A stretch of 53,027 nt of DNA, the filler included, from Circinaria calcarea (Eukaryota): assembly GCA_051942165.1 (NCBI GenBank). It is 3 parts of 3 records of this genome, joined end to end, with 100 filler letters (N's around TTAATTAATTAA, not from the genome) between each part and the next. Parts side by side here need not be neighbours in the genome. Positions count along the whole stretch, not along the records: positions 17,757 to 35,352 come from JAVECS010000263.1; 2 more parts are not named here. The stretch is one strand, 5' to 3'. The notes under the pieces were generated by a model. It was given only the letters and a program-made list of their open reading frames with translations. It was not told the origin of the DNA and ran no database searches. The first letter of the stretch is position 1, and each line of letters starts with the position of its first letter. Both the position numbers and the translations under genes were made by a program. Below, piece after piece: positions 17,757-35,352 of this stretch.

Positions 17757-17759
17757 CAC

Positions 17760-19229
17760 TCAATGTGTAAGCAAATACTCTACCGCCCCCTGCACACTTC
17801 CCCCCGTCCGCCTCAAGGCCTCGATATTCCTCTCAAACTCATAAAACCCCATATCGTTCAGCTGCCTCAACTGCTCCGCGTACCGCTCTTCCGGCGGTCT
17901 AGTGTCTGGTGGCGCTGCTGGTGGCGCCCCTGCGCCCATCCCGCCCATCATACCGCCAGGGCCAAATATCGACGCAAACGGGTTGAAGGCCGCTGCCCCA
18001 TCGTTACCGGGAGCGGCTGGTGGAGCACCGCCACCCATGGCTGCGAGCATTTGCTGCATCAGAGCTGGGTTTTGGAACATGGAGTTGGCATTAGGGTTAC
18101 CGAGAGCGGCAAAAGGGTTTGGTGGCTGAGAGGGATTCTGGCCTTCAGTGGAACCCGGTGTACCTGGTGCCGCCGGTGTTCCTTGGCCCCCAGGCGCGGT
18201 AGGTGGTGGCGTTGCTGAAAGTGTATTCCCGAGGCCAGAGGGGTTGAACAAGGCAGCAAAGGGGTTTCCGGCAGCGGCACCCACACCTGCGGCTGGGTTG
18301 CCAAACATCGCGAATGGATTGGCTGGAGGCTGTTGTGAACCTCCCGGCTGGGCTGCTCGACTTCCCTCTTGGCCTGGAGTTGTGTCCGTGACTCCTGGTG
18401 CGGGGAATGTGGCCGCCTCTCCACCTCCACCCATCCCGCCCATCCCACCTCCAAACATGCGCTGCATTTGTGACAAGTTCCTTATTGAATCTGGATCGGT
18501 CATCATCCGTCGAAACTCCGGCGATTGCATCATCTGCCGCACCTCCGGGCCCATATTGCGCAGCATTGGATTTTGTTGGATCATCATATCAATGAGTTGA
18601 GGATTCTGAAGCGCTTCGTTGAGAGTGCTTGCAAAATTCGGATTCTGCAGCATAGAGATGACTTGTTCGGGGTCAGGCGGTGGTCCCATCTAATTCCCCC
18701 AAACTCCATGTTAGTATTGAACCCGACCCCCGGTAAAAGTGGAATCTCCAAGAGAACCTACCCCACCATCTGGTCCAAACATGTTCTGATTAGGAAGCTG
18801 AGCGAAACCAGCATAGCGAGCACCAGTCAACCCAGCCAAGGGGTTGTTGCCGGTGCCCGCGGCGATGTTGGTGGGTACGCCTGCGGCAGCTGTAGTGGCA
18901 CCTGCAGCGCCGGTCGCTCCGGTACTTGTATTCGAGCCTTGGTTTGCAGGATTCTGTCGCTGGTTGCTGGCGGCTCCTTTGACCAGATGGACGGTGTGAC
19001 CTTCCTTGATCTTGTAGCTTCCTAGGGTGTCTGGATCTTTGAGCACACGGCCAGAATATATGAGTCTCTGTCGTTCGGGTGGTATATCGGCATATTCAGA
19101 TGTAGAGAGCTTTTGTTTGAGTTCGAGGACGGTGGTGGCCATGGACAAGGTCAGGACATATTTGGCGTCGCTGGAAGACTTAACGTTGAAGGTGATGGGG
19201 GTCTCCTCGGCGGGCGCATCGTCCGCCAT
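17760..19229 (-). CDS. DSK2: Ubiquilin (UBL-STI1-UBA) proteasome shuttle factor (intron 18690-18761)
   Basis: [15 protein letters not shown]...HTVHLVK, STI1 repeats (MLQNP/ALQNP) and [21 protein letters not shown]...[17 protein letters not shown]. Confidence 0.95.
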
Positions 19230-20040
19230 CGTGATTGTTTCAATGTCTTCACGTCCTATGGGTACAAAGGCGGTACACTGTTGACCTTGTCGGGAGTAGG
19301 CCGGTTGCTTATCGGAAGGGAGAACGTTGAGACGTGTGGACTTTTAAGCTTGATGGTTGCAGAGCGAAACCTCCGATGACGATGATTGGACGAACCAGGC
19401 CGGAGCGAGGAAAAGCGCCGAGGCCTTTGAGCGGCTCAACAATCTTAACCACTCTCTCTCTACATACGTGCGGGCTCCTCGATCTATCAAATCGACTACC
19501 CAAGACTGGACGACAACGCCAGTCATGTTTCGGGAGAGCCACTCATATACCATATCCAAGCAGATAACTGGCTTTATACACGGGCTCTGCGTTCAAACCG
19601 TATGCGATTTAGAACACAGAGGATCCAGCACAGTTGGGCCTCTTGATCCACTCTTCTAGTTAAATCTTCTTGATTCCAGCGGTCGAGTTCGTCCTACTAA
19701 ATAACAGTGCGAACAGTCCTGTCCATAGTCCTGCGGTACAGCAGAATGTCATCGGGATAAGGTCACATGGTTTTTTAAACTAAGAAAACACTGATGGTCA
19801 GCCACTGGCATGAGTCCGCGTGTGATATGTCTAATGTCTTATAGGCCGGTGCAACTACGAGATTGCTAAGCTAGAAACATGCCAAGTCTATTCTGTACCA
19901 ACGACAGTGGCAGAAATTTGCTGGAAAAGAAGGACGCTTTTATGCAAATGCCGTAGGGACCCTTTGGCCATCACAGGCCCGCATCCAAGTAGAATCTAAT
20001 TCTCTCTGCCACACTTAGCTGCCCCCTAGCTCAATCAACC

Positions 20041-22015
20041 CTAAGGGACGTTCTCAAGTAGCTCCAAGGGTAATCGTGTAAAGTCTGAATCATTTGAACC
20101 TTCTGATGGGCTAGCATCAGATGCATCTGCTCTTTTCGAGGCCTTCCTTACCGGCGACGAGCCGGTGAGATCGATTCCCTGAGCCGCCGCCATTTGTGAC
20201 GCTGGGATACTCGCTCTCTTTCTTTTGGCAGCACCAAGTCCACCAGTTACCTTGGACGACTTGTTGCTATCTTTATCTTCTTTACCATTCAATGCAGTGG
20301 AAGACTTCTTTCTCGCCTGCCGAGGGACCTCGACCTCATTCCCACCACCCTCCTTCCTGCCCTTAACTTCGCCTGCTGGCCTCGGAGAGGGTCGCGATGG
20401 CACATTGCTCTTGAGGGAGACTGTACTTTGGTTTTCGGAGAAGCGGGACTTAATGCTCGTGTCGGAGGGATCGCGAGTTGGAGGAGGCTCGTTCGTAATC
20501 ATCGACACCACCCTGGGCCGTCCGTTCGCATAGGATGCTGCACGAGCTTCTGCAGCAGCCGAAGGTTTTGTCGGGATTTGCGACATACTTGCTGTGCTGT
20601 TGGTCCTGATGTTCGCTAGAGCAGCCCATCTGCTATTTTCATCGTTTTGATTGCCGACTATTCTCTTCGCTCCTTCCGTCGTTTGGCCGTTACTTGGCAA
20701 GATACTGGGAGGTCTACTGTAGTCCGTCATGCTGGCACTATTTCGGTTGCTCATCGGTGTTATTGGGCGGGAATAGTCCGGCATCGGCTGGTCTTCTTCA
20801 ACTGTTTGAGCTGTATAGCGATTCTGAGTGAAGCATGGAGCATTCGCTACAAAAGGATCCGGCATCAATCCCATGGAATGCCATTTGGGCCCTGTGCTTC
20901 CGTTGTCAACTCTGGGTGGAGGGGGTAGTGGCAGAAATGGGTAGAAGCTCGAATTAGACTGGTCGCTTGTCGAAACTCTTTCTCCAATCTTAGCCATCGA
21001 CTCGACTCCGCGGCGTGGCGAGTGAGCGTGTAGGGTGGGGTCTGCATCGGCCTCAAGTCTTGACGGTGAGGCCCAGTTGTAGAATGGTTGAGCCAGCTGG
21101 TACCACATTCCTGGATTTGGCCATGCAACGCCAGAATTCTCGAGCACCTCTGGATTTAGACTCAGCCACCAAATCCAATCCGAAGGGCATGACTGAACCT
21201 ACTGAGAGGAGCATGCTGGAATGAAAAGCATACGACGTTCCTAAGTCGTACAAAGGGAACACTCTCCAGCTCTGACTTGAAACCCTCGGAGATAATCACC
21301 CTGATGCGGCCCATGTTCTCTCCAGCAGCCCACCAACTTTGAGTGAGCATCTCCGGTCGAAAAGGAGGAAACCGTAGGCATTGTGGATTGCCAGCCTTGT
21401 CCGTCTCTGTGGAGAATGAGACGTGGAAGTGTTCGCGGGCTGATTGTGAACTCACGAATTGACGCATCTGCCATTGATCAGCACATGCACCAAGAATTTC
21501 GAAGAAGCTTCTTCTCACTCATGACCTGCGGCCAAGGACCTTGATCACTGAACAGTACCCCTCTTGTAACCCCTCAGTTACTGCCCTGAGGAAAGCCGGT
21601 CCTGGCGACTACAATGGACTCACCCAACACAAATTTCGTCCACCAGGACTCGAGCCTCAAATGTGACGTGGCTACCAAACTGGGCGGCTGATTGGACACT
21701 AGCGCTGCTCACTGTCGGAGTTTCCCAGCTGTGTAAAGAGATTCTAAAGGGAGTCCCCTCGGGCAGGTTGGCGACAAAGCAGGTCACGGTAGGAATCTGT
21801 CGAGGCAACACGTTCTCAAAGGTGTCATTGCTAGCTTTGGGCAATGTTTCTTTTAGCATCCTCTCTTCTCCCCGAAAAAGTATACGCATACCGTTTGTGT
21901 TATCCGGTGAGAAGAACTCGGTATCCTGGACAGCGTAGCAGTTGGTCTTGAACTCCTGTGTAGGTACCTTGGATCCTTCTTGGAGCAGCAAAACGTCCCA
22001 ATGAATATACCTCAT
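20041..22015 (-). CDS. Multi-exon hypothetical protein (ordered N-terminal domain plus disordered basic C-terminus)
   Basis: Consecutive minus-strand ORFs (MRYIHWDVLL...PFRISLHSW; LRFPPF...GRIRVIISEGF...VCFSFQHAP; LENSGVAWPNP) separated by GT..AG introns. Confidence 0.75.
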
Positions 22016-23077
22016 GCTTACTCGAGACCTTGAGAGGTGCCAGGAATCATTGAGTCACCGTACTCAAACTTGGAAGGTGATGCGACGGAGTATCTACAAG
22101 GTCATCGGACGGCTGGTGGGCGAGGGAATTGGAAATGGCCGGTAACTGGATGATGATACCACATGCCCTTTCCTGAGAAGTGGGAGAGATGTGAGGGACT
22201 CAAACGGGAAAGAAGAGTCGAGGTCACAGATTAAGCGAATCGGCTAGGAAAGCCGGTGAAGACTTACTGCTGCAAGATTCTATCCCCATCGACCAACCGG
22301 CATTATCAATGCTCTCAGCTGATACATTGTCTTGAGACCCAGAGTTGAAGCTCATCTCAACTCAAGGGCGCTTCATCACAGTGACGCCTGCTCTTGGAGT
22401 AAGGGGATTCGGAAACATCGCCGGGTAGTCAAGCATGTCTTCTATCAATCACCGTGTAGTCTAGAGGTTTCTGCCAGGGAAACTCCGGCAGATCAGTCGA
22501 CCTCATGTAGAGAGTGCGGTAGTACCAACTTGGATTCCTAGTCAAATATGCCTCGACACATTGCGATTAGCACACGGTACCTAATTGGGGACTAAGAGTG
22601 AGTCTGTCAGAATTAGCATCTAGCATGGATTCAAGGCCAGCAATAGTCACACAAGATAACTTTGTATGGAGAGGGACTCGGCTCTTGTGTAATTGAATGC
22701 ATGAGCAGCCCAGGTGTTTCTCAGACAGTTCTTGGGGGAAGGCTATCCTATGCTTCAGCTTCAGGAGAGGTCATATTAGTGGTACATGGTTTCCCCAGCA
22801 TCTCTCGAGTTGTTCTGTAATCCCCACTCTCAAGTTCACGATTTGCCCTGCCCTACTTCCAGAGCTTCACTTTTCCAACCATGGCAGTATTCCCCCAACC
22901 CTTCTTCCTTGAGCGACAGAGGCTTGCATCGAAAGCCAACAATCCAATCCAGTACAAAGAGCGAACATGACCTTTATCGGAAGAAATGGTACTGGTACAG
23001 AGAAAGTGCGGTCTGTCAGAATCCACTGTAGGTTTGAGATACGACGGCAAGGATTTGACCTGACTGGAACATTCGCT

Positions 23078-25272
23078 TCATTGGGAAAAGACGCTATCGT
23101 AGCCTCTACTATCAGCCTCTAGACGGTCGTCAACACTTTGCTTTTGCTGCATATACATCTCATTCATACGGTTGACTGGAACTGCATCCGTCGGACCTGG
23201 AGTATCGGGACCCAGCGCGCCTGGCGGTCCTAGAGGAGGTCCTTGTCCAGGCATGACTGGCGGGTGCATGTGTACTGCGTGGGGACTAGAAATCAGATCG
23301 GGGTTGTTAGCTTAAAGACCGACTACTTCGCACATGAAGATTACGCGTTTTGTCAGAATGCACGTCCCACAATATGTTGCGTGAAGAGAAGGCTTGCACA
23401 CCCGACACTGAAGCAGGAAATTAAGATTATCAAGAGGGGAACATCAAGCTATGTGACATGTATCGGTTTTGGCAAACTGACAGAATGGCAAGCTAGTAAC
23501 GCAACATCTGGAACACCCTGATGTGCAAGAATGGCTCAATAGCTACACTGAAGTTGGTAATCTCGTACAGCTCATCATGACATCCTAAAAGACAACTCGT
23601 TATACCACCTTTCTGTCATGTGCTGCTCGAAAGAGAAAAGGCACTCAAATTGCCACCGTCAATGCTCCGAGGTGATGAAATAGCAGAAGTGAAATATCTT
23701 CAACCGCACTAATTTTCAAGATAGAACAGTTGCTTTTCAAGGCAAAATCTGGTAAGAGCTTATGACGAAGAGGGGTTCTTACTATCGGATTATCAGCAGT
23801 TGAAATTCAGTGTTTATACGGTTCCCAAAAACCTACCTTCATAGGCGCAAAGTTACCATATTGATGTGTAGGAGGCATACCCATTGACGGATAAACCGGG
23901 GGTGGCGGAGCTGGACGGTAAGGAGTACCCGCAGGGCCGGAGTTGTTCTGGCTTCGACCCCAGCTAAGTCGTACACGCGAGTTACCGATAGGATAACCTT
24001 GCATTTGATTGATAGCCATCTCGGCAGCATGACGCTGCACGAACTGAACGAATCCACAGCCTTTACCAGGAGGTATCTTCACGTATGTGATCTCACCGAA
24101 TCCCTGGAAGAATGAACGAAGCTCATCTTCAGTGACATAACCAGAGAGCCCACCAACGAAGACGGTGGTGTTGTTTGGGTCGGTGAACTGATTCATCGGC
24201 TGAGGGGCGCCATAATAGCCCATTGGGGGAGCTCCCATGGAGTACATGCCGACCGGACCTTGTCCGCCGCCCGGCATGCCCATTCCGCCTTGTCCAGTGC
24301 CTCCAGTCTTATTTTTGGGAGTGGCTGTGGAGATTCGCATCGGGCGATTTCCACAGTACACACCTTGCATCTCACCGAGAGCACGACTCTGCTCTCCTTC
24401 ATCAGAAAATCGAACGAAACCATAGCCACGAGACATGCCACTGATCGGATCGGTCATGATTTTAGCAGACTTGCAGGAAGCAAAGCGGCTTTGAAAAAGC
24501 GACACCAAAACAAACTCGTTAACCTCTGGGCCAAGATCGCCAACGAAGATGGAATACTCTGGACCACGATCATCTCGGCTATCATGTGTCAGTAATACGA
24601 ACTTAGATGTATGAAAATTACTGACCTTCGGTCAGCAAGGCCTCCACCAGAAGCCCAATTCAACTTGAAGGGACGATTAGAGTTCGGAATGATGGTACCA
24701 TTTAACGTCAGTGCCTTGGCAGCAGCGGCAGGGCTAGTGAAGTCGATGAAGCAATACCCAGCATTACTATACGTGTTTAGTACGCTTCGATAAGGCTACA
24801 TGGGGAACGCTTACCCTGAGAACTTATCACGAATCATTTTAACATTCACTTGCTCGCCCATGTTGTACCAAACGCTTCGCACGAAATTCTCGTCGATCCA
24901 CGGTTCCAGCTCGCCCATCCTAAGGGACATGACATGTTAGCATTAAGTCAGATTAACGGTTAAGGGACATCAGCACGGTTATGACACTGTTGACAAGGTG
25001 AAATCGAGTATCGAACGTGATGCGCACATCTATCAAAGGAAGACCTCTACCAATATCTTCACATACCAGAGCGTTGTTTTAGCGTCTCCACCTGGTTGTC
25101 CTCCAGTGGATCCTGGTTCACCGACATTCCCACCTTGAAAGCCTGCAGGAGAATTATCAGGGTTCTGACCACCCATAGCACTGTCCTGTTGTTGCGGCGC
25201 TCCGGGCCCAGCACCACCAGCATCTGGCTGGCCTTGCTGAGCCTGAAAGGAGTCATAATTTTGGAAACTCAT
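23078..25272 (-). CDS. NAM8: Three-RRM RNA-binding protein of the Nam8/Ngr1/Csx1 (TIA-1-like) family; short isoform stops at 23779-23781, predicted long isoform ends at 23078
   Basis: KTTLWMGELEPW, AGYCFIDF, FKLNWASGG, YSIFVGDL, SRGYGFVRF, DPNNTTVFVGGL, KGCGFVQF and RVRLSWGRS. Exons 25272-25067, 24919-24815, 24747-24626 and 24578-23838, plus a distal exon 23285-23078. Confidence 0.88.
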
Positions 25273-27833
25273 TGTTTCCGCAGAGTGTCTTGTGATGTTG
25301 CAGAGTTACGTAGATAGAAGCACTGGAGAAAATCTCACTGGATGTTGTGATATTTGATGGTCGGCAGGGCAAGATGAGATTTTCCAAAGGTTGGCAGATG
25401 CGTGAACGTCAGAGGCGACTTTGTGAATACCGATTAGCGTCTTCTTGGTAGGCCTCACGGCGATAGTGCAGTCATTTGCGACCCATAACACAATCTCCTT
25501 CTAACCCGTGTGCAGCTGACACTTACAAGAGAACCTGCGTCGTTCCTTGGTGCGCAATTCAATATCTAGAAACCACAATACCAGTGTAGGCTTTGGGAAT
25601 TCGCAGAGCCCAAGATTAACTGAGCAGAAGTAGATGAAGAAGTAGATGCTGCTAATAGCTGACGCGCAAACGGTTACAGGCAGGCTTTTCCGATGACAAT
25701 ATGCGAGGACTATTCGAACGTCTGGGAAGGGATCGTTAAGGACTGTCGGTCTTCCTGTACCGTCTAGATAAGATGAGCTGTGTGGGAAACGCGAACGATA
25801 CAGGCGAGGAGCTAAAAGCCGAGCGATGATCAGCCACTCACTCATTCACGGATGGCTTCACAATTCCAGATGTGTCATCCAGTCAACACAGCGCATGACA
25901 ATTGCTGTGAATGATGGGACGAGGATGCGGAGGTTGTAGACGACCGGATATCCATCAGGAGGTCGAGGGATGGACAACCGGAGCCCGACCAAATACAGGC
26001 AGGGGAGCTGGCTGATTCACTCGGGAAAACCAGAGCGTTTTCCGGGTCAATTGGCCCAGCACGACGGGCTTCAAGAGCCGTATCGCAGGCAAGGAGGTGG
26101 TTGAAGACGTGCCGGGACGATCGGGCCCAAGACAAAGGGGGAAAAAAAGAGTCGCAACTCACCAAGACGGGAAGGCTCCTGCGCAATGCAGACAAAGCAG
26201 AGTTGAGTCGATATCAAGAAATCAAGAACACCCGCGACACAAAGGGACCCGAAGGGACGAGATGGTAGTCGACGAAGATTATGCTTGGGGAGGGGGGAAA
26301 AGCAGAGGAAGACACGAGCAAGAGAAGGTTTGGTGGAGGGGGAGCCGATTTCTTAGCCAAAAGTGGAGTGGAGGGAAACTCAAACCGGCGTAGCGGGAAA
26401 AGTTCGATTGACGCCTATGAGGCCTAAGGTACGACCTCCCGGATCTCCTTCTACGCTGGCAGCCCATGATTCGCTGCGACGGGTTCAGAAAGCTTCAATT
26501 TCGATAGTATCATATACAGATATATACCCAGGCTCCTGGCACGCATACGGGCGTCCGGGAACCCTGAGGCTTCGATCTACGCTGTGGCTTCTATCCATCG
26601 ATGATCAGTGGGAGCATGTCCTCCGTAGCGTGGGAAGCGCAAGCAGGAACTATAGATCCTTGGTAGAACAAAGGGAAGCAAGGCCAGCCAAACGGCACCA
26701 GCTGAGTGGTCAAGGGAGGGCCCGTAGCTGCAAGTAAGTCTATTATGCATGCTGACCGAGGTCGGAAGGGTAATACGTATTCTATAGAAGACGTGCAACC
26801 GGGGAGGTTTGCTTGCACGCAAAAGTGGAGGCTGCAACGCACGGAACCAGACCGGTACGGTAGGTATGCAATCAGCCCGCCTCCCAATTTCTTAGAGAGA
26901 CACAATAAAGCTAACTCGTTTTCTCCTCTCTCTCGCAGCTGCAAGGGGAAAGCTCCAATGATCCCCTTACCTCCGTGCTGACTTGGACGATTTCCATCAT
27001 CATTCGCGCAGCAAACGTTTTGCCCATAGTTAACCCTCACGATCTACTTAGAGAAAACCTGCATGTAAGGTACTCAATTAGACGTAATTAAGACCATTTG
27101 TTGCGAGAGACTGCTGGAGGATCTAACTTTACCTTTATTTATTTTTTTAAAAAAAAGGGTTTTCCCATGGCCCGGCCCGGTCTAGATCTTTTTCGGGAAT
27201 GACGTGCATCAGTCTTGAATCACAGGACCAACCGGACTCGGGTCGGATAAGTGTCTGTCCTTGCGGATAACCACAAGACGTGATAGGTAAGATACAATTA
27301 CGGTCACGAGAAATTGGTATGCATAGAGTTCGATCAGATAGCTTCCAACCCGAGACGTTGATGTTTCTATTGGCAAGATTGTACTCTGTAATCTCGGAGA
27401 CAGACGGGGAAGCCGTAGGCCAAGGTTGACATGGGTTGGCTGGAAATTATGTCAACCTGGTTCACGGGCAACGTAAAAGCTGAGGTGGCTTAGATGCATA
27501 TTAGAGAGGAACCGGATCCTCTTAGGAATGAGAGGGTGTCTGACATGATCTACCTTGGCAGGCACACCCGGCAGGGCGCAAGCTTGAGAGCGGCTTGGTA
27601 GGGTTCTCTTGTCAGCTTCGAAACCACGTATACACACAACGCTGAATGTGGTCAGTTCTCAGATATGTATTTCATGCCTACATGACATCACACTGTCCTA
27701 GCTATATTCATGTCCGACAGCTAAATAGTGAACAACGTGTCCCGGGGATATCTTTTTGTCCAAATGGTCAACTCCAGATTCATCCCCAATCGTTATGTGC
27801 TGCAATGTACAATTCAACTCCGGCTGCGTCCAG

Positions 27834-30800
27834 TCATGACATTATTTTCATCGCCCCAAGCAGGATCTCGACTCCCCCGCCCGGGCCAGCGCTGTTCTTC
27901 CGCCCTCTCTCATTACCAGCCTTACTCTCTCTCCTCTTCATACTGTATGTTCCGCTCCGTTTTCTCTCCGTGGAAAGTGGTGGAGATTGTGTCTGTTTCG
28001 GCTCCAGCGGTATTACGCCGGCGCTTCCTTTATCAGACTCGACTCTGTCTCCATCGAATCGCAATTCCAGTCCCTGGATGTTCAGGCCCGCTTCATCACG
28101 TTTGAGACCCTCCTTCGTACCGTCGGTTCTTTCATCCGATCCCATTAGAGCAGGTGGCCGGTGTCTCTGTGCCTTTGCCTTGGCTAGGCTGATCGTCTTC
28201 TGCTGGTAAGTGCTAATGATCGGTTCACTATCGTCACGATCGATGGTGGCCTTCATGAGCGCGGCCATCCAAAGCCGACCTTGCGTTACGTTATCTACAG
28301 CGAAGTAGTGAACAGTGGGTCTTGTAAAGTTGACCGCACGGGATAAACCCGTCCGAGGTGGAACTAGCTTGAAGATGAATGTACTGTCCGTATTGGCTTT
28401 CTGAAAGGTAGAGGCGGCTTGGGAGGCGGCTTCGGTGGAGTTAATAGTTGGAGTCTGTGCATTCGAAGGAGATGTGGGAGACGACTTCGCACCGGTAAAG
28501 GTAGCATGGAGACCCGTTATCCTTTCGTTGTCTGCAGGCAAAACACGGTGGGAGGAAATGTCAATTAGTCCCTTTTCCTCAGTGTCATTCTCGGTATAGT
28601 AGTACGAGAGTCGACGTCCGCGGAGCACAAAGAGTCGTGGCTTCCATGTGGTCATAAGACTCGGGGACTTTTTCTTCATCCAGCCACTATAGTCACAGTC
28701 AACCATTTGCTCATAGGGAGATTTCTGCATAAGTCCACGCGTATATGCACTAGTCTGTTTCTTGGATTTTCGTCGTGTTGTCCGACTTGGCGGCGTTACA
28801 CCGGTAAGTGTGCTATCGGTCCCTTTGGAAGAGGACGCGTCCGTACTCTCCATTTCAAAGCTTTTTGATGCACCGGAAGTGGTTGTAGAGCATGTTCGAG
28901 TCGGGGACGGTATCGCAAATTCTTTCATAAACGAGGGATTGGAGGAAGGGGATGCTACTAGTGTCTTTTCTGATACTTGGGTAGCAGCAGAGCTTGCTCG
29001 AACGCTGATTCGAGGCTTTGGAGACGATTGAGGGTTCCAAATTTGCGATGTCTGTGAACCGTGTGAGATGACCGGTGATCCCTTATCAAGTATAGGTGAC
29101 GCTGCCATGAGGCTCGTTCTAGGTGTGTTTGCGTAGTCAAGCTTAGTGACGGTAGGTGAAGAAACATCTTTTGGAGGATCGGCTGTGAAACCACTCTCCT
29201 TGATGATTGAAGTACTGAATCGGCTCTTGAGGCTATCAGCTAGGTGCATCTTCGAAGCTGGAGAAGTCATTGCAGAAAGGGTATCCCGAATAGAGTCTCC
29301 GCTTCCGAGCCGAGATTGACGTTTGGACCCAGTAGTGATTCTCCGCTGCTGTTGCTCTTCTTTATGGCTACTCTGACGCGAATGTGATGCACTGACAACA
29401 TCCCGCTTCCTCAGAACGTTCCGGCTCTTCTTCACATCCACCTCACCACCAGATATATCACCGCGGTCAAGTCCGTTCGAAGGACTTGTGCCATGGTCAG
29501 AGCCTTGCGAGATAGGATCGAAGGTATTGCAGTCACTACTCAACGAAGGTGAATGGGCACGAGAGTCAACTGTTGATGCCGGACGGCCGTTCATTGCAGG
29601 TGCAAGGTTTCCCATTGTCCAATTCCGATCAAATGAAGGTTGCTTCCTGTGGGAAAGTGTAAGGCCTCTAGTGGGCGAAAGAGGAAGTCTCTCTTCAACA
29701 TCATCAACCGATGCAGCGGCGGTAGAGAAGTCAACGGACGAATGGCGTCGCGAGTGATTAAGCTCTCGTACCGAGGCTGCTGAAGGCCGATCTAGGCTCT
29801 CTCGACTGGGGCGGAATGTAGCAGTTGACGGCATTGAGGTCGTTTCCTGATTTGGTACTTGTAGCTGAGATGCAAACTGCGGTTGAGATGCATTCCTTGG
29901 GCTCTCCTGCTGGCTATGGCGGGCAGCAAGTTTTGAGCCTGGGCGATCAAGCAGGTTTGGGATTCTAGGTAACGTAGAACTAATCATGCTGCCTCGATTT
30001 GCGTTCTCTAAATTCCCCGGAGAAGTATTACCTTCGAGAGGACTGTTGCTCTTTGTGTCGTAGCACTTATTAGCTCGGACTTCCTCTTGTAGCGCTTTGA
30101 TCTTGTGCCAAGTTCTCAGCCGCCGCCCCACGAGACCCAGATTAAACTCTTTCATGAAAATAGAACTTTGATCCATGCCTAAAAGTACTTCTCCAGATAT
30201 TTCCTGCTCCATAAACACTTCGCAATGGCGACGTTCTACACCAACGTCTTCCAAGTACTCTGCTACTTGGGCGGGGGTCCATTTTGTCACTTCCTCTTCC
30301 GTGTGGGCGTTACGTTCCTCCTCGTCGGTCTCATGTCCATTTATATAAGATAAGCGGTGATCGATGTGATTGCTGTATTCGCTTCCAGAGTCGTTGATTC
30401 CCCTCTGTTCAACTGCAAGCAAGCTGGATCTTGGCGTATTAAGATCTATTATATGTTCATCAATCACACTCAGAGTCTCATTCATGACCGGACTGTCCTC
30501 GCCATGATGACGCACATTACCCATGGTCATGCTAATACTTCGCTGAGTAAATGGATGTGAGCCCACTGTTTGCGCTGGAGAGACGGGGTTTGGCACAGAA
30601 TTAGTTCTATGCAAAGGCGGCGTCGTGTTTAGAGGCGGTGGAGTGGCATCATGAAGATCGAAATACTCTGGTGCTGCTGCTGTTGACAATTTCTCGGATC
30701 CCATTGGGGTTTCGGCTCCCTGACTGTCATTTGAAGCTAAGCTTTGCACTTCATGGTCCGAGTCAACCAAAGTGACTAGCCTGGAATTATCGAGAGATTC

Positions 30801-31278
30801 CTGAATCAGAGCACCGAGCCGCGTGTTGGACCGGATGCTGTTCATATGAGGCGGTCGCGGGATTGCTGTTGTGTATACTGCAGTGTACGCATTAGAAGAT
30901 GCCCGTAAAAGCTTGTTGTATCTGGACTTCGACCAACCCTCGGGAAAAAGCCCTGATCGGCCATTCTGTAGATGTTTACCCAGGTACCACCCATCTCCAA
31001 AATCATCATCGCGCTCTATGAGCTCCAATCTATCCCCTTTACTTAGACTCAGCTCATCCGCACTACGGGCCTCGAAGTCATCTAAGTATCACTAACATTA
31101 GTTAACCATAATAGCAAGGCTCCCAAGTGCCCGAGCTGCTGCTAATAAACCATTATGCCAGGTATCATTTCATCTCTTCTCGTACAAATTTTCGTAGAGG
31201 CTATGACTTACGGATGACCATCAATAATTGTCCTGGACTGGCCTTCTTCGGCGATTCTCCTTGATGTCGGAAGGCCAT
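27834..31278 (-). CDS. BOI2: Polarity scaffold SH3-SAM-PH protein (Boi1/Boi2/Pob1 family); introns 31082-31211 and 30878-30937
   Basis: SH3 HDFEARSADELSL...GDGWY...GLFPE|VY, SAM WTPAQVAEYL...EISGEVLL, and PH YSGWMKKK...WKPRLFVL...LWMAALMKA. Confidence 0.9.
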
Positions 31279-32240
31279 GCTTGTGATCGATGCAGGTTTT
31301 GCGCTCCAATGCGGAGAAGGCAGCAGCCTGATTGTCAAATCTTATGCGCGCTGAACAATGCTTGGCTGCTGTGAGAGTACCAACGGCATCTCCACCCTGG
31401 GCCCTCTTAGCTCTGAGTACCTCAGATCGTATTCGGACCGTAGATCAGCGACCGACAACGTCTCAAGTAAGGTAGATGTGGCGTGGCCACCATAGGACCG
31501 TAAGATGTGCTCAATGAACCATATGGTGAGCATTTGAACACAGCAAAGCGGAGAGCAAGGACTCAATGACAGAATTTGAACCCGGCAGTCCGAACGCGTT
31601 CGTTTCTCGTATCAACGTTCACTTCATGATTTTGTCCGTCGTCAGGTTACCTCTGGCACTTTATTTTGTCTCTCCATGATGATGAGAGGATCGGTATAAT
31701 AAGTAACCGGAGCGATCCCAGAAAGCGTTAGGTTTGCCACTACGGGTAAAATTGTGAAATCGAGAACCTTAGAGTGTTATAAATAAACAACACAGAGGAG
31801 ATTGTGAACAGGAAAGCCATTTGATCTTAGAGACGGCCTATAAGAGCTGACTGATATCTCCCCCGAGTCGATTATGCCAGTGGATGACTTATCTATGTTT
31901 CAGTAGAGCTGCGAAGACGTGATGCTGAAGAAAGCATGACTTAAGAGTACGATTCCCTCTTTGATTAAGATAAGAAGTTTTTGCAAGCATGCCGCTCGAT
32001 TCTTGCTTGCCTCATTGTTGCTTCACATCAGTTTTGACTGCTTCTTCTTCTCCAAAGCATCATGCAAATGCATCACGTCGATTACCCCCAGGTGTACTGC
32101 TCTGGAAATTCCAGCATTTCTAGCTACTCAGAGACCTTGTTGAAAGAAATTCATCTGCTGTGGCGGCGGTCTCGAAATAAGCGGCTGGCTAGTGATTGAC
32201 TTAGATGCTGATTTAGAATTCTCTAGAGGTAGAAAACATC

Positions 32241-35200
32241 ATGGCTTCGTGCTCAGGCCGCCCTCGTGATAAGGGAGGCAAGTCTACTCCTGGGAAGGAG
32301 ATAGAAAGGTCCAATTCAACCCTATCTCACTTCTTCGGAGGTAAGCAGCGGGCTTGGATGACAGAGTCCTGTAGCACGAATGACTTGCCAAATGCGCCCT
32401 ACAAGCCGTTAAAAACGTCAAGCCAAGGTAGTAACACTCGAAATTCACTACGGCACATCGAAGCAGCCTTCAGCCATCAGGTTATACCGAGCCAGGCAGA
32501 CATCATTCAACAGATGTCTTCCACCAGACATCGTACAGATCGGGCATCAGCGATTAGAGAGAATGTCGAAACTCAGGTGGTCCTGATATCGAAAGACCAG
32601 TCGACAAGAATGGACCCCATGCTCCCCTCCCCAGCACCTAGCGAGGAGAATCTGCACGAAAATGACAGCAGCATTACGAACGGGGATGGCAAAGGACTGT
32701 CTCCGTTGCAGCGGTCAGGAGACTTGGAACTTTTCAAAACGTACCTTAGACGTAACGCGGTTGCTGAAACCGAATTCGCTCCGACCATAGAGAGCCAGAT
32801 CGATGCGCGAGAAGTACCTCCTGACATGGCAGCTGGAAAAGCTCCACTCAATCACATGAAAAGGTCCTCGGAGAGTGAAGAACTACCTAGCCCTAAGCGA
32901 CGGATGACTTCAGACGTCGAGTATAGCACGGATAGGCAGCCATTGTCAGAGCAGGCCGATCAACGGGGAATAGTTCCAAACCTTACCATGTCTCGCAACA
33001 ATTCGCAACCGTCAGATCCACCTTTGACATCCTATCTGACTGCCATCGATTCCCGCCTCGAGGTTATAGGGAACGGAGATACCTTAGAGGGGAGACGCCT
33101 GCGATTGCTGCGGGAAGCATGCGAGTGTGGAGATCCCTTCTATCTTGCAATCCATCAGCTGTTTTGTATGAGTTCTACGACGCTATCAGTTTCCCGGTTG
33201 GCTGGACTCACGAATCAACATTTTCAGGGAATGGTCGTCCTGAACCAGATCCTACTATCGAACGATGGCCTGTCGATGGACGCTATCCAGTGGTTCTCGA
33301 ACTTCCCGAGTCCGCTTGAGACTTTACTGCAGACGTCCTTCAGATTCCAGATGGCATATGAGTGTGCTCGGGAATGTATTGCAGTTTTGTACCAAAACTG
33401 GCAGCGGTACCAAAGCCATTGCTTTGCCCGCCTAATCCCACCACTTGTGGATGAGTTGGAGAGGGAACTCTGTGTCAAATCACCCATTTTGCAACGCGTC
33501 ATATATTTAGCTATACATCGTGGGTTTTGGATTGGTGAGGACGACACCTGCTCTCGCTTAAGCTTTACAATTTTCAACGCTAGTCAAGACAAGTACAAGA
33601 CATGGAGGAGTCGCTTCGGCACAGCCAGCCAACCGACAAACGAGGAGATGATTCGATACCGTGAAGCCCTTATAACTGACTTTCGGCACATTCGCAATAA
33701 CCACCACGAACGACATCTGCAACCAGGAATACAGACAAACGGACAGCAAACCCCTACACACCAGCCACAAATGACATTTCCTACTGAGCGCCCGCAGGGT
33801 AGCCAAATTCCTCAAGCTAGAGGTACTGAATCACAAACGGCCTGGGCACCGAATCCAGGTACAGCCACTTTCAATCCCACCATGGTCCTACCGAGCCAGC
33901 ATACCTCGGGCGCACCACCTCTGGAAATCTCAGTTTCTAAGCATCAGCATCCTCATTTGGAGAGGGGTGGGGACGCGTCTATGACATCGAACATGGCTTT
34001 TCACCAACGCAATGTATCAACGAGAAACCTATCACGCATGAATCCTCAGATGAGTCAGATGTATCAGGCAACGGAATCCGTTGGGCGACCCCAAGCCTAC
34101 TTCAACTCACCTACTACCGTTCGCATGAACCAAGCAAACCATCTATCCTCGAGTGTAAGACCTATTTCACGTACGAATAGTATGCCTATCCCAAGGGCAA
34201 CCACTACGCCTCTGACGAATAACGTGCCATCTATCAATCGATCCATTGGAAGGCCGCCATCCCTCAACCTTGTATATGGCAATACCAGTTCTCGAACAAC
34301 TAACAGCCTTCAGGCAGGTCCGCCTGCAATGGCAGCATCGCCCGGAATGGCAGCAATTGCTGCACCTTTTCGTCAAAGTCATAGGCTTACTTTAACACAA
34401 CCGAGACGAGGCAGCTCAAGGACGGTGACCTCACAAGCAAGGATGCCTGCGCAAAGTCCACGAGCTCGACTACATCTAAGTCAGCCTCTGCCGCCAGGCT
34501 CTTCCACATTACACAAGACTAGTTTCAACGATCCGCTTGTCGTTATGAATGGCGCGGTTGGCAATTCAGAAGTAGCCAACATACACTACCAGTATGTCAA
34601 AGATTTCGCTATCGAGCCATTCACAATGAGACCAGAGACACGTAACACTTTGAAGCATTTCACTATCTCTCCTGAGACCTGGGCCATCGTTCCGAAGCAC
34701 GTTCGGCAAACCAATGGCCAGCTTATCAGGGAAGTTGTGCCTGGTTCGCTTCAATACCGTCTGCGCTGTATCAAAATAACCAGCGTGGAAGGGATGTCTG
34801 AGAGTAACTGGGTCATTGAGGAGACGACATGGCCGGACTTTACTGTTGTTGTCGTGCTTAACGGGAAGGGCTTGGACATTGGTCGTAAGAACAAGGATGG
34901 CAAAAGTTCTCCGGTGGATGTAACACCCGTTCTCAACGAAGGGCCGAACACTCTCCACCTATCCATCATGCGTTCTGGGCCTGCCGTCGATGCGGTAAAC
35001 TCTTATGCTGTTGCCATAGAGATCATTGAAGTCAATGACCAGATGAGTTTACAGGAAGCAGTGGGGAGCTTGAGCGTCGCGGAGATGAAACAGCACCTAC
35101 TCCGTCAACTTAACAACAACGATCCCGATATCGAGGTTGTTAACTGCAATATTGCCATCGGGCTTACCGATCCTTTCAGCTCGTGCCTCATCAACAAGCC

Positions 35201-35352
35201 AGTCCGCGGCAAGGCTTGCAAGCACTACGAGTGTTTTGACCTCAGCACCTTCCTCCAGACCCGCGAGGGGCCAGTGTGCCGGCCCGAGCAATTCAGATGC
35301 CCTATCTGCGGGGCTGACGCTCGTCCTCAAACTTTGATAGTGGACCAGTGGA
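32241..35352 (+). CDS. SP-RING/MIZ zinc-finger protein (SUMO E3 ligase-like), truncated at the gap
   Basis: Long uninterrupted ORF with C-terminal LTDPFS...PVRGKACKHYECFDL...FRCPIC. Confidence 0.85.

Follow-up and report, generated by a model that had tools for sequence, protein, structure and literature searches.

How can the removal of one intron write the stop codon that ends a protein and, with the same bases, the splice site by which that stop could be removed again? The question is raised by a gene for a protein with three RNA recognition motifs (RRMs) from the lichen fungus Circinaria calcarea (assembly GCA_051942165.1). The gene lies on the minus strand, at positions 25272-23078 of the window, i.e., the whole analysed stretch of 53,027 nucleotides (nt), which joins three parts and in which positions 17,757-35,352 come from record JAVECS010000263.1. 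A preliminary description, made from the sequence of the window, had called the gene NAM8-like and had proposed that a candidate spliceosomal twin intron (stwintron) of the [D1,2] class makes it switch between a stop and a no-stop isoform. We consider it probable, at about 0.8, that the segment 23837-23286 is a [D1,2] stwintron acting as a switch between two C-termini. The stwintron is deeply conserved, and its splicing intermediate is the mRNA of the short isoform.

Architecture of the probable twin intron

The exon borders of the gene were set from RNA joints together with the sequence, and the exons were then joined by script from the window. The joined products are a short protein of 398 amino acids (aa) and a long protein of 466 aa. 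On the minus strand, exon 4 ends with ATG AAG (23842-23837), followed by GTAGGT (23836-23831), where the inner intron begins. Once the inner intron is out, the joint reads AAG TAA, which puts a stop behind residue 398 and, in the same event, creates the donor AA|GTAAGA. This 5' splice site appears only after removal of the inner intron; the primary transcript does not contain it. From TAAGA, the distance to the distal branch site and acceptor is ~470 nt, and the whole stwintron (23837-23286) comprises 552 nt and is the last intervening sequence of the gene.

The reading frames leave little freedom in how the distal exon can be reached. Within the anatomy of the window, the sole in-frame route ends the upstream exon at AA, and a splice that did so in one step would require a GG donor. 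If the inner donor is instead spliced straight to the distal acceptor, the tail is frameshifted and comprises 41 aa; that such a splice would be out of frame had been claimed beforehand and is confirmed here. Every sequence element of the preliminary description was found in its place, correct to the base (Table 1), and the claimed [D1,2] anatomy, with a stop produced by the first splice, is borne out by a joint in the RNA of a near relative.

Transcripts of a near relative

Public metatranscriptome and metagenome runs, none of which derives from C. calcarea itself, contain a relative that is ~96-97% identical, with at most 0.26 of the query words matched. Four runs were compared as assembled contigs: three of RNA from one study (X1, X3 and X4) and one of DNA from another study. 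The inner-intron joint that had been predicted between 23837 and 23781 (23781^23837, GT..AG on the gene strand) is present in all three RNA runs and absent from the single DNA run, whose contig is colinear across the whole region, inner intron included. The three upstream introns are likewise removed in the RNA contigs. These contigs show the short mRNA in the lineage of the relative.

Behind the joint, the RNA contigs continue for about 345-370 nt into the outer intron, to 23413 in X1 and X4 and to 23437 in X3, which suggests that the 3' end of the short mRNA lies near these positions. The next 129 nt (23284-23412) have no RNA contig cover in the three RNA runs and are spanned by the DNA contig. 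It had been proposed that 3'-end formation inside the outer intron competes with splicing; the contig ends and the gap in cover agree with this part of the proposal, and neither a poly(A) tail nor a poly(A) signal was seen in the contigs. Separate RNA contigs cover the distal exon (22947-23283 and 23049-23262), one of which starts no more than 2 nt from the predicted acceptor.

Conservation of the inner intron and the rebuilt donor

To place the window among other fungi, metagenome contigs were scanned, which yielded 80 loci; 61 distinct exon-end contexts from these loci and that of the window make 62. The inner intron is present in 25 contexts, a stop stands directly behind Lys or Gln in 24, and the reading continues without an intron in 13. 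Across the 25 inner-intron loci (the window and 24 other distinct loci), the inner intron measures 48-83 nt. The last exon base is G in all of them (AAG in 21, CAG in 3, GGG in 1), TAA stands directly behind the inner acceptor in all of them, and TAAG does so in 23. The two features whose conservation the preliminary description had expected, the split donor G/TAAG and the distal peptide considered below, are therefore both found conserved.

The donor rebuilt by the first splice reads GTAAGC in 14 loci, GTAAGA in 7, GTAAGG in 2, and GTAAAC and GTAAAG in one each. None of the 25 has T at position +6, compared with 15/25 for the inner donor (Fisher p 3e-6, which is not a true probability because the loci are related). 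In the 20 nt behind the rebuilt donor, the fraction of T is 0.41 across loci versus 0.31 further on; in the window alone there is no enrichment (0.30 versus 0.34). The enrichment across loci would be compatible with binding by a Nam8/TIA-1-like protein and proves nothing. Several complementary DNA (cDNA)-like loci have the form of the intermediate: L013, L030, L033 and L073 read AAG or CAG|TAAG, and L015 reads AAG|TAAT.

Two loci depart from the common pattern. L044 (3754-3802) has an inner intron with a GC donor (GCAAGT), followed by TAAAC, and L066 has TAAAG; they are the sole 2 of the 25 that lack G at position +5 of the rebuilt donor, and the distal exon was undetected in both.

The distal exon encodes a conserved tail

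A search of 1.84 billion representative proteins with the 68-residue distal peptide (P0002) returned 41 homologues at E<=1e-3, 22 of them at E<=1e-10. Nearly all of these are short open reading frame (ORF) calls on genomic contigs that share the same C-terminus, and their conserved part is immediately preceded by a Ser codon AGY, formed by the AG of the acceptor and the first base of the exon. By pattern search, a branch site followed by YAG|T CCN stands in register and in the same phase in 17 of 23 distal-exon loci, where AA + T gives Asn. Between inner-intron lineages, non-synonymous differences in the distal exon (pN) amount to 0.01-0.31 per site, against 0.19-0.92 for synonymous ones (pS); the ratio of the corresponding rates (dN/dS), computable in 14 of 28 pairs of these lineages, is 0.03-0.19. 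The distal exon is under purifying selection in inner-intron lineages and, because of such constraint, must on this sequence evidence be translated.

The tail has no Pfam family. A profile search of solved structures with the tail did not match the Nam8 chain and gave only one match, unrelated and at E 0.31, and an ESM Atlas search with it returned no usable match. One protein of 141 aa (P0160) contains a decayed-looking RRM3, slips frame, and then runs straight into a degenerate distal peptide; in some fungus, the long mRNA may have given rise to it as a mutated or processed copy.

Long forms in relatives and their ancestral version

The long isoform predicted from the window has a counterpart of the same length. 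P0168, a 466-aa protein encoded on a 2409-nt contig and present in two sources, reads Phe-Ala-Pro-Met-Asn-Pro-His-Ala-Val-His across the junction, as predicted; its nearest named relatives in the set are Lecanoromycetes, and the conceptual long product of the window aligns with it over residues 1-466 at 86% identity. Profile searches further revealed two transcript-like long forms with a Leu-Asn-Pro junction (P0171 and P0180) and annotated long forms in Morchella, Tuber, Lipomyces, Blastobotrys and Saitoella, of which the Tuber and Morchella proteins share the Leu-Asn-Pro reading. Because long forms occur in these genera, the tail is, as judged from such comparisons, the ancestral C-terminus of the family across Ascomycota. 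The in-frame Asn junction expected from the second splice is found in related taxa (P0168, P0171 and P0180), and the passage through a micro-exon, which the preliminary description had named as a contrary outcome, fails because nothing stands between the residues of Met-Asn-Pro in long-form proteins.

Truffle-like and Tuber genomic loci lack the inner intron: they read AAG|TAGTT..., with the distal exon 225-271 nt downstream, and their one-step intron, AA|GTAGTT...YAG|T, occupies the same position as the outer intron of the window. In one such genomic locus, L004 (AAG|TAGTTT...TGTAG|TCC), the canonical intron AA|GTAGTT...TGTAG|T is used, because the transcript-like P0177, which reads Leu-Asn-Pro, matches the locus exactly (identity throughout the 67-residue tail and the final 79 residues of exon 4). 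Truffle-like fungi with this AA|GTAG version have both the short and the long form. A canonical intron at the same position in other taxa, here truffle-like fungi and Tuber, is comparative support of the kind used in the stwintron literature. The 24 contexts with a stop directly behind Lys or Gln are mixed, some being cDNA-like (short mRNA) and others genomic without an inner intron. The 13 continuous contexts encode Met-Asn-Pro without an intron; some of them are genomic contigs in which upstream introns are still present, and intron-free long forms are annotated in Lipomyces, Blastobotrys and Saitoella.

The gene models of Pleopsidium, Gallowayella and Lecanora helva (Lecanoromycetes) and of Peltula bridge the gap between the RRM part and the tail in four different ad hoc ways, and none of the four (P0166, P0179, P0183 and P0119) has the Asn junction. 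Such improvisation is expected because the intron would have to begin with GG.

Short forms in databases

Among 20 annotated orthologues examined, 8 end exactly at Lys, and in the other 12 translation continues as Lys-Val... through the GT that opens the inner intron. A search for short-form transcripts admitted only proteins of at most 433 aa, so that long forms were excluded by design; among the 28 transcript-like orthologues in this set, on contigs of ~1.3-2.9 kb, 25 end at Lys or Gln, 2 enter the inner intron and 1 ends Met-Asn-Tyr. As judged from the transcript assemblies, the short mRNA is the common form. A short-form transcript also exists in lineages without the inner intron, as P0035 ends with the same residues as exon 4 of L023.

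Six further loci, four of them genomic (L068, L069, L072 and L074) and two cDNA-like (L055 and L057), read CAG|TAAAGC without an inner intron, and the distal exon was undetected in them. The closest named protein of this lineage in the set is from Cladosporium, and this Cladosporium-like lineage apparently has a fixed short form. Two other cases show an AA|T junction with a different end: P0085, whose best matches are Eurotiales proteins, ends Met-Asn-Tyr-stop, and L020 (1503-1560), whose best matches include Zopfia and Cenococcum proteins, continues as Met-Asn plus 14 residues. The rebuilt donor may remain in use in such cases, where the old tail has been lost. A genomic counterpart of the L020 tail and an acceptor for Asn-Tyr-stop in Eurotiales-like loci were looked for and not found.

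Weighing of the switch against other explanations

Several observations weigh against a functioning switch at this locus. No contig in the four runs of the relative joins 23838 to 23285, the second junction anticipated by the preliminary description; since the contigs come from a relative, its lack there does not show that the junction is absent. Assembled contigs lose rare forms and show no strand, poly(A) tail or isoform ratio, and they therefore neither show nor exclude the long mRNA for the lineage. Because the next gene lies on the same strand, the RNA contigs that cover the distal exon might derive from a different transcript. Among the 80 loci, no long-form transcript was paired with inner-intron genomic DNA of the same species; the sole pairing obtained, P0177 with L004, concerns the version that lacks the nested intron. 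With the tail profile, the distal exon was undetected in 10 of the 25 inner-intron loci, of which L060 has only 321 nt of downstream DNA and the other nine include Eurotiales-, Dothideomycete- and Leotiomycete-like loci. TAAG is kept in 8 of these 10, and for this reason it may be kept partly for the context of the stop codon or for elements of the 3' untranslated region (UTR). Finally, the constant lack of T at +6 of the rebuilt donor fits a deliberately weak site and also a site that is not selected as a donor.

If only the short isoform were made in this lineage, the inner intron would be just the gene's last intron, of the ordinary kind and with a stop behind it, and the distal ORF would survive as a relic of the old C-terminus in downstream untranslated or intergenic DNA. 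The junction to 23285 that is missing from the relative's four runs would fit such an account, as would the many ends at Lys (8/20 annotated orthologues) or at Lys/Gln (25/28 transcript-like ones) and the fact that the distal exon can be lost, being undetected in 10/25 inner-intron loci. We nevertheless regard it as unlikely: the distal ORF is intact, with its branch site, acceptor and phase conserved, its dN/dS is 0.03-0.19 among inner-intron lineages, whose synonymous sites are near saturation, and a Lecanoromycete-like long-form transcript protein (P0168) exists. Of the RNA contigs over the distal exon, moreover, one starts no more than 2 nt from the acceptor, behind 129 nt without RNA cover. 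A one-step origin of the long mRNA, in which a non-canonical GG donor at 23837/23836 would be spliced to the distal acceptor with the inner intron still in place, is very unlikely. The U2-type spliceosome requires GU (or GC) at the donor, and this rule speaks against GG; in addition, the joined intermediate with the canonical GTAAGA is abundant in the RNA contigs, TAAG is kept behind the inner acceptor in 23/25 loci, and fungi without the inner intron use a contiguous GTAG as the same donor. The final product would be the same as that of the two-step route, which is why reads of the end product cannot separate the two.

The distal ORF might instead not belong to the RRM gene and could be either a small transcript of its own or the first coding exon of the same-strand downstream gene. 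One protein does point this way, as P0140 (470 aa) has its start within the distal peptide and extends from there into the downstream gene's orthologue, and RNA contigs extend from the distal exon to below 22700. Such an assignment is highly improbable, however, since the conserved peptide begins at the acceptor and not at Met, and ends at a conserved stop that P0140 must splice around. The same peptide is the C-terminus of full-length RRM proteins in Tuber, Morchella, Lipomyces, Blastobotrys, Saitoella and transcript-like contigs, and is contiguous with RRM3 in some fungal genomes. P0140 is most likely a gene-model chimera that results from the unmodelled stwintron. The next gene itself occupies positions 20041-22054 of the window, on the minus strand like the RRM gene. 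Hardly credible is a single ordinary intron with other sites, for example from the donor TATG|GTAACT (23856) to the acceptor CACGCAG|TA (23274). This pair, although in frame in the window, was rejected: it deletes Gly-Asn-Phe-Ala-Pro-Met/Leu-Asn-Pro-His/Tyr-Ala, which is kept in every long-form protein, and Met-Asn-Pro is retained at the same point in intron-free genomes. Nor is its acceptor conserved, as there is no AG at this place in, e.g., L008 and L039.

Gene model and protein family

Table 1. Features of the three-RRM gene and its stwintron in the window (positions of the window, minus strand).
Feature	Position	Strand	Description and basis
Coding exon 1	25067..25272	-	ATG 25272-25270; RNA joint 24918^25066 (cut +1) in 2/3 RNA runs; translated model
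Intron 1	24920..25066	-	147 nt, GTATGT...TTAG; RNA joint and model
Coding exon 2	24815..24919	-	RNA joints and translated model
Intron 2	24767..24814	-	48 nt; RNA joint 24766^24815 in 3/3 RNA runs
Coding exon 3	24626..24766	-	RNA joints and translated model
Intron 3	24579..24625	-	47 nt; RNA joint 24578^24626 in 2/3 RNA runs
Coding exon 4, to AA of the last codon	23838..24578	-	RRM2, linker, RRM3, proline-rich stretch; translation P0001
Shared G	23837	-	Ends codon Lys398 (AAG) in the short mRNA; opens the outer donor in the long mRNA
Inner intron	23782..23836	-	55 nt; donor GTAGGT, branch GCTGAT 23797-23792, acceptor TAG 23784-23782
TAAGA	23777..23781	-	TAA (23781-23779) is the short-isoform stop; with G 23837, rebuilt donor GTAAGA
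3' UTR of the short mRNA, first part of the outer intron	23413..23778	-	RNA contig ends; probable 3' end
Rest of the outer intron	23286..23781	-	496 nt (497 with G 23837); branch GCTAAC 23311-23306, acceptor TAG 23288-23286
Distal coding exon	23081..23285	-	T 23285 completes Asn398, then 68 codons (P0002)
Long-isoform stop TGA	23078..23080	-	Sequence and ORFs; C-terminus at the same aligned position in homologues

The translation of exon 4 (P0001) shows 98% identity to annotated proteins of Varicellaria rhodocarpa and Icmadophila ericetorum, both lichen fungi, and has close relatives across Pezizomycotina, with 2527 proteins at E<=1e-3 (2795 candidates). In their sources, some of the orthologues are named 'mRNA binding post-transcriptional regulator (Csx1)' or 'RNA binding protein involved in regulation of arginine catabolism', the latter of the Aspergillus nidulans RrmA type. 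Among solved chains, yeast Nam8 (5zwn_V) is the closest, with E 6.7e-74, far ahead of Pub1 (8.6e-23) and TIA-1 (1.4e-22), so the NAM8-like label first given to the gene holds by sequence; the protein belongs to the Nam8/Csx1/RrmA family. Nam8 is a component of the yeast U1 snRNP, where it helps in the choice of 5' splice sites. Pfam RRM_1 is found on three stretches of the long-form relative P0168 (E 5.6e-42). The studied orthologues, A. nidulans RrmA and Schizosaccharomyces pombe Csx1, are described as mRNA-stability factors in the available text of PMC4282371.

Two contigs of the relative differ from the window upstream of the stwintron. In run X4, an RNA contig over 24920-25111 has a 34-letter stretch of exon 1 replaced, and in run X1 an RNA contig over 24577-24626 shows intron 3 as a 48-nt variant, one letter longer. 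Both are most likely differences between strains or species, or effects of assembly.

Proposed mechanism and evolution

In the first splice, shown in the RNA of a near relative, the 55-nt inner intron is removed and AAG is joined to TAAGA, so that the same bases write a UAA stop behind Lys398 and the donor AA|GUAAGA. The transcript might then end about 345-370 nt further on, inside the outer intron, where the contig ends point to 3'-end formation, and would become the mRNA of the 398-aa isoform. Alternatively, transcription would reach the distal branch site and acceptor, the rebuilt donor would be used, and the 497-nt outer intron would be removed; the Lys-stop would be turned into Asn, followed by 68 residues, to give 466 aa. 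We infer the order of these events, and likewise the second splice to 23285 in C. calcarea, for which the case is strong, the corresponding junction having been seen in relatives.

As the simplest ancestral history we infer, from comparison of the loci, an old intron that later received a nested one. The old phase-2 outer intron would have had a donor that already overlapped an in-frame stop, and therefore its retention would have given a stop and its splicing the tail. The second intron would have been inserted later, behind the first G of that donor, in the ancestor of most Pezizomycotina classes, and would have been kept since.

In the 3' UTR, i.e., the first part of the outer intron (window 23413-23778; loci L006-L077), conserved non-coding blocks were noticed by eye. 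A motif GC[GA]G(N0-2)A[GC]T[TC], often GCGGGAGTT, stands 27-50 nt behind the stop in 13 of 39 sequences, mostly Dothideomycete- or Eurotiales-like ones, and in lichen- and Leotiomycete-like loci the stop is followed, after ~105-125 nt, by a block resembling TTCTCC..TTAGCGTTAC. Such blocks could be binding sites or part of the 3'-end signal.

What the two isoforms would do is a matter of speculation, and the following reading is offered as a doubtful one. NAM8 and NGR1 of baker's yeast are duplicates. A single gene might here do the work that is split between them in that yeast. The long isoform, with the ancient tail, would act in the nucleus on weak 5' splice sites before pyrimidine-rich tracts, and the short isoform would be the cytoplasmic mRNA-stability factor that has been studied as RrmA/Csx1. 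The long form might furthermore bind the pyrimidine-rich tract downstream of the rebuilt donor in its own pre-mRNA and, by this feedback, set its own short:long ratio. The nested intron would serve as a timer, in which the intronic 3'-end site would get a head start because the donor is unrecognisable until the first splice is done.

Comparison with known systems

According to the available text of PMC9024468 and PMC12403724, the [D1,2] stwintrons of Pezizomycotina are removed by two standard splicing reactions in succession; if splicing from the inner donor is done in one reaction, one G stays in the product and the frame is shifted (PMC9024468), and many described stwintrons are restricted to a species or a family (PMC12403724). 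The element in the window resembles them in that its inner intron lies between G1 and T2 of the outer donor and a one-step splice shifts the frame. Unlike in the described [D1,2] stwintrons, its first product is more than a transient, as it has a stop created at the joint and serves as the common mRNA for a shorter protein. It also differs in being the last intervening sequence of its gene, one that contains the apparent 3' end of the short mRNA, and in having a rebuilt donor that is suboptimal at +6 in all 25 loci. Whereas many described stwintrons are narrowly distributed, this one occurs in loci that resemble four classes or more.

The [D5,6] stwintron of rtnA, a reticulon-like gene, in Aspergillus niger and Neurospora crassa undergoes alternative splicing with verified intermediates, as reported in the available text of PMC6616335. 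In both genes the stwintron helps to make two mRNAs from one gene; in rtnA, alternative acceptors of the internal intron lead to exon skipping, whereas in the gene described here the occurrence or not of the second reaction decides between stop and no stop (PMC6616335 for rtnA). As far as the available text of these papers goes, [D1,2] stwintrons, the one-G frameshift of a mis-splice, and alternative splicing via a [D5,6] stwintron are already described. No account of the stwintron of this gene was found in the available text of the stwintron literature, including PMC5639578, the earliest papers and supplements lying outside the search. The terms 'intron', 'splic' and 'isoform' are absent from the A. 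nidulans RrmA paper (PMC4282371), and earlier RrmA-type work may have covered only one of two isoforms.

Stwintrons have mostly been seen as curiosities of intron evolution, and their intermediates as lacking any function; in this gene, the main mRNA is the intermediate itself. One set of bases, brought together by the first splice, gives both a stop and a splice site able to erase that stop, and the arrangement is kept in loci resembling Lecanoromycetes, Eurotiomycetes, Dothideomycetes and Leotiomycetes. If the history outlined above is correct, the locus would provide a dated, stepwise example of a nested intron arising inside a working regulatory switch, on top of an older one-step overlap of donor and stop. 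There is a practical side as well: gene finders are unable to model a stwintron, and most genome annotations miss the tail. The conserved C-terminus of these post-transcriptional regulators, a well-studied family, is missing from most fungal proteomes because gene finders stop at Lys, read into the inner intron, or improvise. The protein shares its three RRMs with Nam8, TIA-1, Pub1, RrmA and Csx1, and Nam8 is its best solved match; it differs from Nam8 in a tail without detectable counterpart in the solved Nam8 chain.

Two systems outside fungi offer a further comparison. The choice between secreted and membrane-bound immunoglobulin mu is one of splicing against intronic polyadenylation at a composite terminal exon, in which a weak 5' splice site and a cleavage site inside its own intron compete. 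In the recursive splicing of animals, a preceding splice regenerates a 5' splice site. Unlike in the immunoglobulin mu switch, the competing donor of the gene described here does not exist until another intron has been removed, and unlike in animal recursive splicing, the rebuilt donor is not supplied whole by the downstream piece, as it borrows the last base of the exon.

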